NCBI GenBank assembly: GCA_963706025.1
Contig: CAVPLM010000003.1
Location: 352,001 to 416,000 of the forward strand
Direction: 5' to 3'
From: an uncultured Actinomycetes bacterium
GTDB lineage: Bacteria; Actinomycetota; Thermoleophilia; RBG-16-64-13
Length of the DNA: 64,000 bases
Every line of letters begins with the position of its first letter. Position 1 is the first letter of the stretch. Positions 59,800 through 64,000 of this stretch are shown here, one piece after another. Under the pieces are notes generated by a model. The model had not been told where the DNA came from. It searched no databases and saw nothing but the letters and a program-made list of their open reading frames with translations. The translations under genes were made by a program, and so were the position numbers.

Positions 59800-60621
59800 T
59801 CAGTAGTGCGCCGGGGCCTTGAGGTACGTGGCGTAGCTCTCCGCTTCGTGCGAAAAGAAGATCTCAGCCCGGCGCTCTTCGGCGAGGGCCTTCAACCGGC
59901 GCATCGATCTGATCGAGGCGACCGGATCGTAGTGAAAGCCCGCGATGCACTCGAGGTCCAGGCTCCTCTGCGTGTAGATGGCATCGCCGGCGAAGATCAG
60001 CGAGGACCCTCCGCTCAACTCGACCATCAGGCTGTAGTGGCCCCTGGAATGGCCCGGTGTGGCAATGAGCTGGACGCCGGCGGCGATCTCGACGTCTCCC
60101 TCCACGGGGACGAACCGACCGTCCAGCTCGAGCGCCGGCCGGTCGCCTATCTCGGTCGCACCGGCGGGTCCGGTCTCCCCACGGCGGCGGCCGAGCTCGG
60201 AGGAGAAACTCAGATCGGAGTAGCCAAGGACCTCGAAGGGTTCAGGGCTTCCGGCAGCCTCGAACTCAAGTCGATGCGCCACCACCTTGGCCTCGGGCAG
60301 GTGCTTGATGCCGCCGCAGTGGTCGAAATGGAAGTGCGAGATGGCGATCGTCGAGATGTCATCCGGGCCCAGTCCGAGCAGCGCCAACTGCGCGGGTATG
60401 GTCTGCGACTCAATCTGCAGGGGTTTTTCGAAGGGAAGGACTCTGAGGACATGATCGAGGTCATACCCGGTGTCGTAGAGGATGTTTCCGTCGGGATGGA
60501 CGACGAGCACGCTGTAGCAGGGGATCCTCACGGGTCCTCCCGGGCCACGGTTCCAGAAGACATGGAAACCGTCCATTTCCAGAGTTCCGCCATCCAGCAG
60601 GTAGACTTCGCTTGCCGCCAT
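59800..60621 (-). CDS. 4-pyridoxolactonase-like metallo-beta-lactamase (AHL-lactonase family)
   Basis: HxHxDH (SHFHFDHCGG), TPGHSRGH and SH motifs. VYLLDGG..DGFHVFWNRGPGG, DTGYDLDHV..VLPFEKP.Q and LGYSDLSFS match my recollection of Mesorhizobium loti 4-pyridoxolactonase. Confidence 0.8.
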   Translation of the reverse strand: MAASEVYLLDGGTLEMDGFHVFWNRGPGGPVRIPCYSVLVVHPDGNILYDTGYDLDHVLRVLPFEKPLQIESQTIPAQLALLGLGPDDISTIAISHFHFDHCGGIKHLPEAKVVAHRLEFEAAGSPEPFEVLGYSDLSFSSELGRRRGETGPAGATEIGDRPALELDGRFVPVEGDVEIAAGVQLIATPGHSRGHYSLMVELSGGSSLIFAGDAIYTQRSLDLECIAGFHYDPVASIRSMRRLKALAEERRAEIFFSHEAESYATYLKAPAHY

Positions 60622-60660
60622 GATCTCCCCCTGTCGTATCACTGAAGAAGCACGCGTTGC

Positions 60661-60702
60661 TTGACTCTAGGTTCACTATTTGTTATATGGATAATACATC
60701 CA
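60661..60702 (+). promoter_or_regulatory. Putative promoter with overlapping inverted-repeat operator in the divergent intergenic region
   Basis: TTGACT-N17-[23 protein letters not shown] at 60688-60702. Confidence 0.45.
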
Positions 60703-60826
60703 AGTCCGCTGCGGCGGATTTGCCTGGGCGTCGTGTTTAGCATTGTGTCAATCCATGGTACCGGTTTCGTGTACCTGTCTTCGTGTCCTCTGGTCTGCGT
60801 AGCTTCATCGGCGAAGTAGGGGATGG

Positions 60827-61561
60827 ATGGTGTTTGACGCGCATATGCACGTGGGGGACTTCGGGATATTCGGGGTATCCCTGGATCGGGACGGGCTGGC
60901 CGAACTCATGCGCGCCAACGAGGTCTCCGTTGGGGTCGTCTTCAGCCCGGACAACGAGGCGACCCTCGCGGCGGTCGAGTCGATACCTGGGGCGTACGGT
61001 CTCTACTGGGCTGATCCCAATCAGCGCGGACACCTGGACGAAGCCCGCCGATTTCTGGATCACGCCAAGTTCCTGGGAGTCAAGCTGCACCCTCTCCTGG
61101 ACGGCTACTACCCGAACGACCCGGTCGTCTACCCCCTCATGGAGTTGCTCGCGGAGCTTGACCTCCCCGTCCTCGTGCACACAGGACATCCCATCTTCAC
61201 TCTCCCCTGGAGTGTGGAGGAATTGGCCGTCGCTTTTCCAGGAGTGAACGTGATCATGGGCCACATGGGTCACGGCAACGGGATCTACATCAATGCGGCC
61301 ATCGACGCAGCCTGCAGGAACCCGAACGTGTACCTGGAGACCTCGGGGATGCCCATGCACACGAAGATACGAGAGGCTGTGGAGCGGGCCGGTGCGCACA
61401 AGGTCCTCTACGGTTCCGACGTACCTTTTCATCATCCGCAGGTGGAGATGCTCAAAGTAAGGCTGAGCGGGCTCCCGGCCGATTTGGTCGAGCGAGTCCT
61501 GGACGGCAATGCCCGTGCCCTGTTTTTCGGGGACGAGCATGCGCAAGTACCTTTGTCGTAA
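60827..61561 (+). CDS. Amidohydrolase_2 family protein
   Basis: FDAHMH, GVKLHP, PVLVHTG, IMGHMG, NVYLETSG, VLYGSDVPF. Confidence 0.88.
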   Translation: MVFDAHMHVGDFGIFGVSLDRDGLAELMRANEVSVGVVFSPDNEATLAAVESIPGAYGLYWADPNQRGHLDEARRFLDHAKFLGVKLHPLLDGYYPNDPVVYPLMELLAELDLPVLVHTGHPIFTLPWSVEELAVAFPGVNVIMGHMGHGNGIYINAAIDAACRNPNVYLETSGMPMHTKIREAVERAGAHKVLYGSDVPFHHPQVEMLKVRLSGLPADLVERVLDGNARALFFGDEHAQVPLS

Positions 61562-61654
61562 GGATGCCGAGGGGGAGGTGAGCCGGCACGAAGTAGGCAG
61601 TGGTTGGGAGACCACGAGTCCGTCGAGTGGTATCAGAGAACGGGAGGGATCGTA

Positions 61655-62803
61655 ATGAGTTCACGTTGGACCCGGGCACTAGTACTCATAATGGTCGTCG
61701 CACTGCTGGCGACCGCCGCCATGGTCGTGGCGGCATGCGGCGGGGAAGAAGAGACCACTACCACGAGCATGGCGCCGGAGACCACGACGACCATGGCGCC
61801 GGAGACTACGACGACCATGGCGCCGGAGACGACCACCACCGGTGCCCCGACTGCGATGGTCAAGAAGATCGGGGTCATTGTCCCGGAAAAAGCTAACGAC
61901 TACGGTTGGAACCAGCAGCATGCCGAAGCCGGCCAGAAGATGGCCGAGAAGATCGGTGCTGAATTTGCTCTCGCCGATGGCGCCGGATACGGCGACATAG
62001 CTCCCATCATGCGGCAACTGGTGCAGGACGGTTGCGACTGGATCATGGCTGGGGCCAGCGGCTACATGACCGTAGCAAAGCAGGTCGCCCAGGAGACGAA
62101 GACGGTCAAGGTCAATGCCATCTTTGCTCAGGAGAACACCCCCAACATCCTCCAGGACATACAGACCTATGCGGAACAGGGCGCCTATCTTGCCGGCCAA
62201 CTGGCTGCGAAAACGACCAAGACAGGAACCGTCGGTATCGTCGTCTCGGCTGACGACGAGAACTGGACCAAAATGAGCGCCGGCTTCATCCTGGCAGCGC
62301 AGGCCACCAAGCCCGATATCAAGATCAAGCTCGCGCAGGTGGGTCAGGCTGCCTACGCTGACGCCGCGGCCGCCAAGCGGACCACCGAGACCGTCATCGC
62401 CGAGGGAGCCGACGTCATCTTCGGGATGGGCGACGGTTCCAGCTTCGGTATGATCCAGGCTGTCGAGACGGCTACGCCGCCAAGCGGTGCCGATAAGGTC
62501 TGGTTCATCGACGTTATCGGGGACAAAACCTCGCTGGATACGAAAGGCATATACCTTACCTCCGTGGTGTGGGACTACCTACCAGCTTGGGAGGCAGCGT
62601 ACGCCGACATTCAGGCCGGAACCTTCGGCACCAAGACCATCTTCATCGAGCTCAAGAACAACGGCATCGGCATTATCAAGACCCAGTGGATTGCGGACGA
62701 CGTTTGGGCGGAGATCGAAGCCACGAAGCAGGCCATCATCGACGGTACCATCCAGGTGCCGGCTATCAGCGACATGAATGAAATAAAGGCCCTGATCCAG
62801 TAG
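61655..62803 (+). CDS. BMP family ABC substrate-binding lipoprotein (nucleoside/vitamin-like ligands)
   Basis: VAAC lipobox, (MAPETTTT)x3 linker, DYGWNQ, QGAYLAG, GADVIFG. Confidence 0.9.
   Translation: MSSRWTRALVLIMVVALLATAAMVVAACGGEEETTTTSMAPETTTTMAPETTTTMAPETTTTGAPTAMVKKIGVIVPEKANDYGWNQQHAEAGQKMAEKIGAEFALADGAGYGDIAPIMRQLVQDGCDWIMAGASGYMTVAKQVAQETKTVKVNAIFAQENTPNILQDIQTYAEQGAYLAGQLAAKTTKTGTVGIVVSADDENWTKMSAGFILAAQATKPDIKIKLAQVGQAAYADAAAAKRTTETVIAEGADVIFGMGDGSSFGMIQAVETATPPSGADKVWFIDVIGDKTSLDTKGIYLTSVVWDYLPAWEAAYADIQAGTFGTKTIFIELKNNGIGIIKTQWIADDVWAEIEATKQAIIDGTIQVPAISDMNEIKALIQ
61769..61840 (+). repeat. 24-bp tandem repeat x3 encoding the MAPETTTT linker
   Basis: ATGGCGCCGGAGACNACSACSACC at 61769, 61793 and 61817. 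Confidence 0.85.
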
Positions 62804-62840
62804 CTCTGGTCAACACGACGGCCACTACAGCAAGGTGATC

Positions 62841-64000
62841 ATGGCAGACAACAGCACAGTCGAACATCCCGCGGATCTGGGCGGGAGCATGGGAGCGACG
62901 GCGGGGGCTTTGGCCCCCGCCGTCGAACTCACAGGCATAACCAAGGCATTTCCAGGAGTGGTGGCCAACAAGGACATCACGCTGTCCCTACACAAGGGCG
63001 AGGTCCATTGCCTGCTCGGCGAGAACGGGGCCGGCAAGTCGACCCTCATGAACATCCTTTCCGGGATGTATCAGCCTGACGAGGGAACCATCAAAGTCGG
63101 CGGCAAAACGGTCGTTGTCGACACGCCCAAGACCGCGATCGAGTTGGGCATCGGCATGGTCTACCAGCACTCCACGATGATCCCGGTATTCACCGTCCTC
63201 GAGAACCTCATGCTGGGGGCGACCGAGAAGGTCCGGCTGGATCGAAAAGCGGCTGAGACTGCCCTCACAGATCTGGCCGGCAAGCTGGGTGTGGAGATCC
63301 AACCCGGAGCGGTCACCGGCAAACTCGCCCTCGGCCAGCAGCAGCAGGTTGAGATCATAAAGGCCCTGTGGTCCGGCTCGAGCGTGCTCATCCTCGACGA
63401 GCCCACGTCGATGCTGACCCCGCAGGGTATCGCCGACCTCGAACGAGTCTTGATGCAACTCAAGCAGCACGGGCTTGCGATGGTGTTCATCACGCACAAG
63501 CTGCACGAGGCTATTGAGATTGGGGACCGTATCTCCGTCCTCAAACAGGGCCGCGTGGTCGGGCGCCTGGAGCCGGAGGATCTGCGCGGGAAGTCTCCGG
63601 ACGACCTGCAGGCAACCATCGTGGGCATGATGTTCGGCGAAGAAGCGCGCTCGCTGAGCGAGGTGGCAGAGGTGAAGCAGTTATCTCGCCTTCAGCGGGA
63701 GAAGCGTGATCTCCCCCCCACCGTTGTGATGGAACTGAACGACGTGAGCGTGAAGGCCGGCCGGGGAGAGGTCGACGTCCATGGAGTCAGCCTGCAGGTG
63801 CGCCAGGGAGAGATCATGGGCATCGCGGGGGTAGACGGCAACGGCCAACGCGAGCTGGCCGAGGCCATAGCGGGCCAGCGTAGGCTGAACCATGGGGATA
63901 TCGTGCTCACGGGTCATTCTGTTGGCAAGTCCTCGGTGGCTGAGCGGCAGAAGCTTGGCCTCCGTTTCGTTACGGACGACCGGTTGGGGGAAGGCATGGT
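62841..64000 (+). CDS. ABC transporter ATP-binding protein (nucleoside/CUT2 double-domain type), partial
   Basis: Translated by hand: ITKAFPGVVANKDI..GEVHCLLGENGAGKSTLMNIL, QQQVEIIKAL, ILDEPT, ITHKL, GIAGVDGNGQREL. Confidence 0.92.
   Translation, partial: MADNSTVEHPADLGGSMGATAGALAPAVELTGITKAFPGVVANKDITLSLHKGEVHCLLGENGAGKSTLMNILSGMYQPDEGTIKVGGKTVVVDTPKTAIELGIGMVYQHSTMIPVFTVLENLMLGATEKVRLDRKAAETALTDLAGKLGVEIQPGAVTGKLALGQQQQVEIIKALWSGSSVLILDEPTSMLTPQGIADLERVLMQLKQHGLAMVFITHKLHEAIEIGDRISVLKQGRVVGRLEPEDLRGKSPDDLQATIVGMMFGEEARSLSEVAEVKQLSRLQREKRDLPPTVVMELNDVSVKAGRGEVDVHGVSLQVRQGEIMGIAGVDGNGQRELAEAIAGQRRLNHGDIVLTGHSVGKSSVAERQKLGLRFVTDDRLGEGM

Follow-up and report, generated by a model that had tools for sequence, protein, structure and literature searches.

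What is a gene for a 4-pyridoxolactonase-like enzyme, divergent from an amidohydrolase gene and a BMP-type ABC importer, doing in an uncultured bacterium of the Thermoleophilia? The genes in question lie at the end of the window, a stretch of 64,000 nucleotides (G000:C3:352001-416000, where G000 is the source genome, 92% complete with 7% contamination, and C3 its contig CAVPLM010000003.1); coordinates below are those of the window unless a contig of G000 is named. The first-pass annotation had proposed that this locus is the entry to an O2-independent vitamin B6 pathway. To our knowledge, B6 degradation in bacteria has been characterised only as an aerobic process that terminates with a flavin oxygenase. 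The analysis, which rests throughout on comparative evidence, sequence and predicted structure, places the flagged genes at the upstream end of a cluster of ca. 27 kb (C3:411800-438550). We conclude that this cluster probably encodes an O2-independent catabolic route for vitamin B6 vitamers, in which the steps that depend on oxygen and flavin oxidases are replaced. A literature search returned no report of anaerobic B6 degradation, or of aldehyde:ferredoxin oxidoreductases (AORs) or UbiD enzymes with B6 compounds as substrates, most subscription journals being outside the search; a 2026 bioRxiv preprint (10.64898/2026.01.20.700305) concerns, in its accessible part, marine aerobic signalling.

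The lactonase gene is located on the minus strand at 59800-60621 and codes for 273 amino acids from the database-called ATG at 60621; a longer form of the open reading frame (ORF), 59800-60642, would give 280 amino acids from an upstream GTG at 60642. Pfam assigns the product merely to the metallo-beta-lactamase fold (Lactamase_B). Against the NCBIfam equivalog model NF047925 (4-pyridoxolactonase, EC 3.1.1.27) it scored 380.1 bits (380.4 bits in the search of the G000 genome), above the cut-off of 325, whereas the models of the N-acyl-homoserine lactone (AHL) lactonases AiiA, AttM, AhlS, YtnP, and AidB gave 119, 116, 92, 55, and 41 bits, each below its own cut-off (390, 375, 475, 425, and 360, respectively). 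The comparison with the Mesorhizobium loti enzyme that the first-pass annotation had suggested yielded a HMMER match to the solved 4-pyridoxolactonase (PDB 3aj3) with an E-value of 2.1e-95, pairing query residues 9-275 with chain residues 2-262; the best AHL lactonase, AiiA, matched in two fragments at E 9.5e-27. Since the first alignment runs end to end and the second is fragmentary, the similarity is full-length and far above the AHL-lactonase level. All motifs named in the first pass as those of the M. loti enzyme (VYLLDGG, HVFWNRGPGG, VLPFEKP, SHFHFDHCGG, LGYSDLSFS, and FH.DPVA) fall within identical blocks of the 3aj3 alignment, and the claim of a resemblance beyond the generic AHL type is thereby borne out. 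The zinc ligands HxHxDH (H96, H98, D100, and H101), together with H191, D213, and H258, show no variation among 19 aligned homologues. Orthologues from Mesorhizobium share 53-57% identity with the lactonase, and ca. 20 database clusters, one of them labelled Thermoleophilia, are 70-88% identical. We conclude that the protein is a bona fide member of the 4-pyridoxolactonase family and not a generic AHL lactonase, with 4-pyridoxolactone hydrolysis as its predicted activity.

Two paralogues of the lactonase are present in G000 (C20:52213-53007 and C3:858655-859482; 43-44% identity). They scored 320 and 276 bits on NF047925, both under the cut-off of 325, and both adjoin TetR regulators. Around the former are found genes for MFS transporters, an aminotransferase, an Amidohydro_2 protein, S15 peptidases, and TetR; around the latter, TetR, a UbiD-like gene, and genes for a class-III aminotransferase, an SDR protein, dihydroxyacetone kinase, and transketolase. 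A lactonase/decarboxylase/aminotransferase theme recurs around the paralogues. They have no B6-type neighbours and were dropped as candidate B6 loci.

The importer is encoded on the plus strand. Its substrate-binding protein is a BMP-family lipoprotein (61655-62803, within an ORF open from a TTG at 61604; PF02608, E 6e-30) that has a signal peptide and a lipobox (...VVAAC) followed by a Thr/Pro-rich linker. The ABC ATPase, a 549-amino acid protein with two ATP-binding domains, extends from 62835 to C3:416484, and its first 388 amino acids are in the window. The sole NCBIfam match of the binding protein was NF047927, 'putative B6 ABC transporter substrate-binding protein' (356.1 bits, cut-off 400). 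The full-length ATPase scored 710.6 bits on NF047930, 'putative B6 ABC transporter ATP-binding protein' (cut-off 670; 481.8 bits for the window fragment), permease 2 scored 412.2 bits on NF047929 (cut-off 400), and permease 1 scored 424.8 bits on NF047928 (cut-off 465). The ATPase and permease 2 are thus above and permease 1 and the binding protein below the respective cut-offs, while each of the four models was the top or the sole specific match. NF047926 and NF047931, considered as further B6 families, were ruled out; they describe an integrase and an antiphage protein.

To see what accompanies the lactonase elsewhere, neighbours within 10 kb of the lactonase gene were counted in 80 loci of other, mostly alphaproteobacterial genomes; these are the best 80 loci listed, mostly proteobacterial and at most 57% identical, and close relatives were reached by a separate genome search. 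Homologues of the binding protein (40-49% identity) were present in 67 of the 80 loci, the ATPase in 66, and the permeases in 72 and 76. Among solved BMP proteins only remote relatives were found (best 7x0r, E 3e-19; the nucleoside binder TmpC, E 2e-6), and the literature search produced no experimental ligand for a BMP clade of the NF047927 type. With the PnrA/TmpC-type lipoproteins the G000 protein shares PF02608, the lipoprotein architecture, and the arrangement of one double ATPase with two BPD_transp_2 permeases; it differs from them in belonging to the NF047927 clade, next to a 4-pyridoxolactonase in those 67 loci. By sequence, then, the importer belongs to the clade that NCBI names 'putative B6 ABC transporter', and, to judge from the curated names, curators had already connected this BMP clade with B6 genes.

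The first-pass annotation had advised reading past position 64000 for aminotransferases, dehydrogenases, and Mo/W enzymes, and genes of all these kinds were found there. The class-V aminotransferase gene (C3:418637-419821, plus strand) has the pyridoxamine-pyruvate transaminase family NF046070 as its best match, at 432.9 bits and below the cut-off of 600; the next family scored 210. Its best PDB match was 2z9u (E 3e-108, the next one being 6e-43), which carries the PDB label 'aspartate aminotransferase' and which we take to be the M. loti pyridoxamine-pyruvate aminotransferase. For comparison, a transaminase next to a proteobacterial lactonase scored 631 on NF046070. A homologue of the G000 transaminase lies within 10 kb of the lactonase in 64 of the 80 loci, and a count of pathway I genes in 80 mostly proteobacterial loci gave a transaminase beside the lactonase in 62.

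The genes that follow are all on the plus strand up to C3:438550. A 4Fe-4S protein (C3:419818-420228), a subunit for the first tungsten-type AOR, precedes that enzyme (AOR1, ending at C3:422030); directly after it, an ORF of 79 amino acids (C3:422075-422314, or L007 11075-11314), read by eye, codes for a MoaD/ThiS-like protein ending in Gly-Gly, probably a sulfur carrier that serves the pterin cofactor of this tungsten enzyme alone. Next come a GntR/UTRA regulator (C3:422363-423154), a zinc-type alcohol dehydrogenase (Zn-ADH; C3:423183-424220), an iron-type one (Fe-ADH; C3:424313-425461), and a second tungsten-type AOR (AOR2; C3:425480-427345); both AORs match PF01314 and PF02730 at E <= 1e-68. 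UbiD (C3:427355-428950) scored 256 against a cut-off of 245 on TIGR00148, and its best PDB matches, 6h6x and 6h6v (E 1e-56), are presumably the furandicarboxylate decarboxylase HmfF; ubiX is present elsewhere in G000. The adjacent PreA/DPD-like reductase, with FMN and two [4Fe-4S] clusters (C3:428982-430208), is closest in the PDB to the FMN domain of pig DPD (E 8e-30). The remaining genes of the cluster code for the FAD, 2Fe-2S, and Mo subunits of an XDH-family enzyme (C3:430234-433885), a YqeC-MocA fusion (C3:433903-435411; TIGR03172, 128.8 versus 73), XdhC (C3:435408-436244), YqeB (C3:436232-437095; TIGR03309, 353.7 versus 220), a NicX-fold ('M29-like') protein of 334 amino acids (C3:437114-438118), and a cupin of 143 amino acids (C3:438119-438550). 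An M20 deacylase gene is located on the opposite strand at C3:438910-440457. Tungsten-type AORs and selenium-dependent hydroxylases are typical of anaerobes.

In the accessible parts of two papers (PMC2276186, PMC11448449), YqeB and YqeC are described as markers of selenium-dependent molybdenum hydroxylases. The marker set is complete in G000 (the XDH subunits, YqeB, YqeC, and SelD, plus XdhC), and a labile-selenium cofactor is predicted. The selD match (388 versus 125) lies elsewhere in the genome, at G000:C5:742679-743602 on the minus strand, and contains a single TGA in frame. Its product is probably a selenophosphate synthetase with a selenocysteine of its own, which would mean that the organism has more than one use for selenium. 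On the plus strand, a few kb past the end of the cluster (C3:442776-446649, or L010 12776-16649), HdrA-like FAD/Fe-S and MvhD/FlpD-like genes were noted, a possible electron-bifurcating module.

The nature of the ring-opening step depends on the NicX-fold protein. Its AF2 model (pLDDT 90) had NicX (7cn3) as the best Foldseek match (E 1e-23, TM scores 0.79/0.76), ahead of M29 aminopeptidases; a single-sequence phmmer search against the PDB gave no match, and the link came from profile and fold searches. NicX of Pseudomonas putida is similar in length (348 versus 334 amino acids), shares the His-x-Asp pair (H318/D320, equivalent to H308/D310), and has a corresponding genomic role, following a Mo hydroxylase in the breakdown of a pyridine ring, but the two proteins are merely 20-22% identical and differ at the metal site. 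In the profile alignment, the NicX iron ligands H265, S302, H318, and D320 fall on E264, A290, H308, and D310, so that two of the four are kept. Among 79 homologues, His265 is replaced by Glu in every one, and position 290 is Ala or Gly and never Ser. The accessible text of PMC7910607 reports each of the four NicX residues as essential, with H265A and S302A abolishing activity. By contrast, E194, E201, E264, H288, H308, and D310 are kept in all 79 homologues, from both the variants with UbiD and PreA-like genes and the shorter ones described below; invariant His288 sits where NicX has Leu300, and Tyr298 is invariant in a 30-sequence alignment of the family. The conserved catalytic residues of M29 peptidases are given as EEHYHD in the accessible part of PMC7023490, and the candidate set here consists of E194 or E201, E264, H288, Y298, H308, and D310, with E264 aligned with the PepS Glu. 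The match to the M29 family (PF02073) is partial (E 1.5e-10, residues 137-305), the protein being ca. 70 amino acids shorter than AmpS, PepS, and AmpT. Because the kept residues equal the M29 set and the NicX iron site is kept in part only, we infer that the protein would be a metallohydrolase on a NicX scaffold and not a dioxygenase. In the neighbouring cupin, the second cupin motif is perfect and the first has one His only.

Searches for heme-copper oxidase subunit I (COX1) and cytochrome bd subunit I found neither in G000 nor in the same-genus genome G040 (96% complete), while control genomes gave the expected matches. The dehydrogenases of the aerobic pathway scored below their cut-offs in G000: the best match to the SDR-type pyridoxal 4-dehydrogenase (NF047923) was 199 versus 325, and that to FHMPC dehydrogenase (NF042925) was 223 versus 500. 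In the mostly proteobacterial set of 80 lactonase loci, these two enzymes were found in 58 and 54 loci, respectively. Homologues of the G000 AORs, ferredoxin, UbiD, PreA-like protein, YqeB, YqeC-MocA, XdhC, Amidohydro_2 protein, Zn-ADH, and Fe-ADH were found in none of the 80, the XDH subunits and the cupin in one each, and the NicX-fold gene in two. B6 degradation pathway I of M. loti and Pseudomonas MA-1 comprises pyridoxamine-pyruvate transaminase, pyridoxal 4-dehydrogenase, 4-pyridoxolactonase, 4-pyridoxate dehydrogenase, FHMPC dehydrogenase, HMPDC decarboxylase, MHPC oxygenase, and AAMS hydrolase. G000 has in common with it the lactonase family (above the equivalog cut-off), a transaminase-like protein, the BMP-ABC clade, and presumably the intermediates up to a pyridine (di)carboxylate. 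It differs in having no above-cut-off SDR pyridoxal dehydrogenase or FHMPC dehydrogenase, and it is predicted to use ADHs with tungsten-type AORs, UbiD, and then a Mo/Se hydroxylase, a reductase, and a hydrolase, not a flavin oxygenase. The proposal that the locus is the entry to an O2-independent B6 pathway is thus supported by the downstream tungsten, molybdenum, and Fe-S genes and by the failure to find a terminal oxidase in the host, with ring opening as the step whose O2-independence we infer.

How the cluster is distributed was followed in two samples. Of 201 same-class genomes (G000 included), 13 had a lactonase match at E <= 1e-60. The same cluster occurs, at 54-77% identity, in G178, a member of the same family but of another genus. 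A shorter variant, with the lactonase, transporter, transaminase, Zn-ADH, XDH-like, NicX-fold, and cupin genes and without AOR, UbiD, and PreA-like genes, is found in G095 and G135, which belong to other families, and in a metagenome-assembled genome of the Ilumatobacteraceae (L056). In G178 (locus L108, 2560-6659, minus strand), a third AOR-family protein and a 679-amino acid CCG-domain/4Fe-4S protein replace the selenium-dependent XDH genes; the metagenomic loci L134 and L135 resemble this arrangement, and we take the pairing of AOR and CCG-domain protein to be reminiscent of tungsten-dependent dearomatising reductases.

The second sample consisted of 80 metagenomic loci centred on the NicX-fold gene with 10 kb flanks, 30 of which are at least 10 kb long. 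In these 30, the cupin was counted 28 times, the XDH Mo subunit 23, the PreA-like reductase 21, UbiD 20, AOR2 15, and AOR1 14 times. The transaminase-like gene and the B6-type ABC genes were each seen in 11 loci, the binding protein in 8, YqeB in 7, the lactonase in 4, and the Amidohydro_2 gene in 1; the low lactonase count partly reflects reach, since in G000 ca. 25 kb separate the lactonase from the NicX-fold gene, more than the 10 kb flanks cover. Both UbiD and the PreA-like gene were present in 20 of the 30, with G+C contents (GC) from 0.38 to 0.70. Homologues of the NicX-fold protein with at least 60% identity carry names from the anaerobe-rich Anaerolineae and Thermodesulfobacteriota. 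Twelve loci with a NicX-fold identity of 60-70% (GC 0.38-0.58) include nine with a transaminase-like gene and six with a B6-type transporter. Loci L172 (GC 0.38) and L152 (GC 0.52) are single-strand operons in which the genes for the B6-type transporter and the transaminase are interleaved with those of the lower module (cupin, XDH Mo subunit, PreA-like reductase, UbiD, and both AORs); the upper module in G000 consists of the lactonase, transporter, and transaminase. Their transaminases scored 380 and 399 on NF046070 and their binding proteins 370 and 329 on NF047927; between UbiD and the NicX-fold gene, each has a gene of the 3-hydroxyacyl-CoA dehydrogenase family whose best NCBIfam match is FHMPC dehydrogenase (291 and 334 bits, cut-off 500). 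L172 also contains, at 2494-5050 (plus strand), a duplicated ATPase of the ECF type and a T component resembling CbiQ; placed after AOR1 on one side and the transaminase on the other, they may be a second, ECF-type uptake system for the same substrate. It is mainly because co-operonic linkage repeats in very different hosts that we regard the upper and lower modules as one pathway. The lower module alone is new, since the upper one has already been recognised by curators; it has good support as a conserved unit and is plausibly oxygen-independent.

The route that we propose would begin with import of B6 vitamers by the BMP-type ABC importer. By homology, the class-V aminotransferase would convert pyridoxamine to pyridoxal, and the lactonase would convert 4-pyridoxolactone to 4-pyridoxate. 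The Zn- and Fe-ADHs may oxidise the hydroxymethyl groups: they would produce pyridoxal from pyridoxine and the lactone from the pyridoxal hemiacetal, and would convert the 5'-CH2OH of 4-pyridoxate to the aldehyde. Oxidation of pyridoxal and/or 5-formyl-3-hydroxy-2-methylpyridine-4-carboxylate to the acids would fall to the two tungsten-type AORs, of which one has the 4Fe-4S subunit and the MoaD-like protein. UbiD with its prenylated FMN (prFMN), and possibly the Amidohydro_2 protein as well, would decarboxylate the resulting hydroxypyridine (di)carboxylate. The selenium-dependent XDH-family enzyme would then hydroxylate the free carbon beside the ring nitrogen with oxygen from water, the DPD-like FMN/[4Fe-4S] enzyme would reduce the pyridone so formed, and the NicX-fold protein with its M29 motif would open or deacylate the ring hydrolytically, with the cupin and the M20 deacylase acting downstream.

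The overall logic, to hydroxylate, reduce, and hydrolyse, would be that of nicotinate fermentation. Eubacterium barkeri ferments nicotinate anaerobically with a selenium-dependent nicotinate dehydrogenase, 6-hydroxynicotinate reductase, and enamidase. Selenium-dependent XDH-family hydroxylation beside nitrogen, reduction of the pyridone by an Fe-S flavoenzyme, and hydrolytic opening would be common to both, as are the YqeB, YqeC, and SelD markers in G000. The G000 route would differ in its substrate, a B6-derived hydroxymethylpyridine carboxylate, in its DPD/PreA-like reductase, in a candidate ring hydrolase of the M29/NicX fold in place of an enamidase-type amidohydrolase, and in the addition of AORs and UbiD; the G000 cluster showed no gene for a B12 mutase. 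That this is a widespread, undescribed route of anaerobic B6 mineralisation in hosts with GC from 0.38 to 0.70, combining tungsten-type AORs, prFMN-dependent UbiD, a Se/Mo hydroxylase, a DPD-like reductase, and a NicX-fold hydrolase that opens the ring with water, is a tentative proposal that falls just short of being probable.

Several observations weigh against an O2-independent B6 route. Structurally, the NicX-fold protein is closest to a dioxygenase that cleaves rings with O2, and a cupin, a fold common in dioxygenases, adjoins its gene in 28 of the 30 metagenomic loci; with such a pair, O2-dependent ring cleavage is possible. G178, with the most similar cluster, encodes both COX1 and cytochrome bd, so that the cluster is not exclusive to anaerobes. 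The shorter variant sits in oxidase-bearing G095 and G135, and the shared XDH/NicX-fold/cupin core may therefore work in air. The transaminase (433 versus 600), the binding protein (356 versus 400), and permease 1 (425 versus 465) score under their NCBI equivalog cut-offs, and the lower-pathway steps are assigned by gene association. The same-genus genomes G040 and G198 have lactonase paralogues only, and the flanks in G040, the one of the two whose flanks were read, are without the cluster. The compact operons have no lactonase within the 10 kb fetched, and the lactone route would therefore be optional. No flavin-monooxygenase domain was found in the cluster ORFs, MHPC oxygenase, HMPDC decarboxylase, and AAMS hydrolase not having been searched by family, and the completeness and contamination of G000 given above are a caveat. 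One alternative is that the cluster degrades B6 but opens the ring with O2, in a microaerobic hybrid in which the Mo hydroxylase would produce a 2,5-dihydroxypyridine-type intermediate for the NicX-fold protein or the cupin, acting as a non-heme-metal dioxygenase. The adjacent cupin and the oxidase-bearing hosts G178, G095, and G135 speak for it. On chemical grounds, hydroxylation of a 3-hydroxypyridine beside the nitrogen would give exactly the 2,5-dihydroxy pattern, and the structural neighbour is 2,5-dihydroxypyridine 5,6-dioxygenase itself, ahead of the M29 peptidases. We nevertheless consider this explanation unlikely. Two of the four NicX iron ligands are replaced in every homologue, including the two positions at which an Ala substitution abolishes NicX activity, and the retained residues fit the M29 hydrolase motif; the DPD-like reductase present in 21 of the 30 loci would be needless for dioxygenolytic cleavage; and the tungsten-type AORs and selenium-dependent hydroxylase, the anaerobe-rich groups among the homologues, and the negative oxidase searches in G000 and its congener point the other way.

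It is also conceivable that two functions are merely neighbours, the lactonase, transporter, and transaminase serving B6 salvage or partial oxidation to 4-pyridoxate while the lower module degrades another N-heteroaromatic or aromatic acid (nicotinate, picolinate derivatives, or purines). None of the lower-module proteins passes a curated cut-off that is specific for a substrate, the Amidohydro_2 family is a very broad one, the modules in G000-like loci are more than 10 kb apart with a regulator gene between them, and hydroxylases linked to YqeB/YqeC are known, from the accessible parts of PMC2276186 and PMC11448449, in purine and nicotinate degraders. Yet the transaminase-like gene and the B6-type transporter are retained in nine and six, respectively, of the 12 distant loci, L172 and L152 interleave all genes on one strand with an FHMPC dehydrogenase-like gene between UbiD and the NicX-fold gene, and salvage needs no lactonase producing 4-pyridoxate, which is not a vitamin; we regard a chance juxtaposition of this kind as quite unlikely. 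A generic interpretation, with a quorum-quenching AHL lactonase beside an unrelated amidohydrolase and a nucleoside importer, is permitted by the Pfam domains alone (Lactamase_B, Amidohydro_2, and Bmp), and several sources label close homologues 'N-acyl homoserine lactonase family protein'. It is made highly improbable by the AHL-lactonase scores of 41-119 bits against cut-offs of 360-475, where the pyridoxolactonase model passes, by a binding protein that matches the B6 BMP model only and TmpC remotely (E 2e-6), and by the conserved neighbourhood with a transaminase. An O2-independent B6 catabolic route is thus the reading that we prefer for the cluster.

The gene that faces the lactonase (60827-61561, plus strand) codes for a short, 244-amino acid metal-dependent TIM-barrel enzyme of the Amidohydro_2/ACMSD superfamily (PF04909, E 2e-31). 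No NCBIfam family matched it, the ESM Atlas label is merely 'Amidohydrolase family protein', and the family is large, with 1360 matches at E <= 1e-10. The Foldseek neighbours of its AF2 model (pLDDT 94) at TM scores of ca. 0.7 were 2,6-dihydroxybenzoate and 5-carboxyvanillate decarboxylases, ACMSD, LigJ hydratase, LigI-like lactonases, and the uncharacterised 3irs and 3cjp, so that the protein is about equally like the decarboxylase, hydratase, and lactonase groups. In G178, a copy with 73% identity takes the corresponding place beside the lactonase, and six pairs of database entries for the two proteins, which agree in the length of their longest contig, suggest that the pairing extends to several close relatives. 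The candidate roles are decarboxylase, lactonase/hydrolase, or hydratase; the model does not decide between them, and a decarboxylase acting on an ortho-hydroxy pyridine carboxylate would be an attractive one.

The two divergent genes were said in the first pass to share an operator-containing intergenic region. The divergent gap is there (60643-60826, 184-205 bp depending on the lactonase start), while the operator part did not hold up and amounts to a guess. An inverted-repeat search of 60620-60840 found none, and a promoter scan of the intergenic region gave no sigma-70-like site. An AT-rich imperfect palindrome of 18 nt, TGTTATATGGATAATACA (60681-60698), was found by eye; in each arm, 6 of 8 positions are complementary. 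It is unique in the 20 kb locus (0 further sites at <=3 mismatches) and absent from the other fetched loci. At the equivalent intergenic position, G178 has a different AT-rich palindromic stretch, TGT...ACA. The GntR/HutC regulator encoded within the cluster probably controls it, and TGTTATATGGATAATACA is a possible binding site for this regulator.

Upstream of the lactonase are the futalosine-pathway menaquinone genes for MqnA (57717-58736) and MqnC (58733-59788), which are unrelated to the cluster. The MqnE/CofH-like radical-SAM gene before them (56571-57720, plus strand) has a one-base frameshift near 57279-57283, past ...VDHLL, where the correct reading moves to the +1 frame (RLRAGQDATGGFQAFIP...); either the assembly is wrong here or the gene is a pseudogene. 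In the UbiE/MenG-like methyltransferase ORF (55580-56470, plus strand), a 15-bp repeat gives a tandem peptide, GAAHV GAAHV GAAHV, in the middle of the domain.

Every step of the proposed route is open to testing with available compounds, namely pyridoxal, 4-pyridoxolactone, and 4-pyridoxate. If the proposal is true, the NicX-fold protein and NicX would form a natural hydrolase/dioxygenase pair on one scaffold, in which the retuning of a metal site can be studied. Orphan tungsten-type AORs, UbiD enzymes, selenium-dependent XDH-family enzymes, and DPD-like reductases, which are families hard to annotate, would acquire physiological substrates. Vitamin B6 and its excretion product 4-pyridoxate would gain a sink in anoxic sediments and soils, and perhaps in guts, which bears on cofactor cross-feeding.

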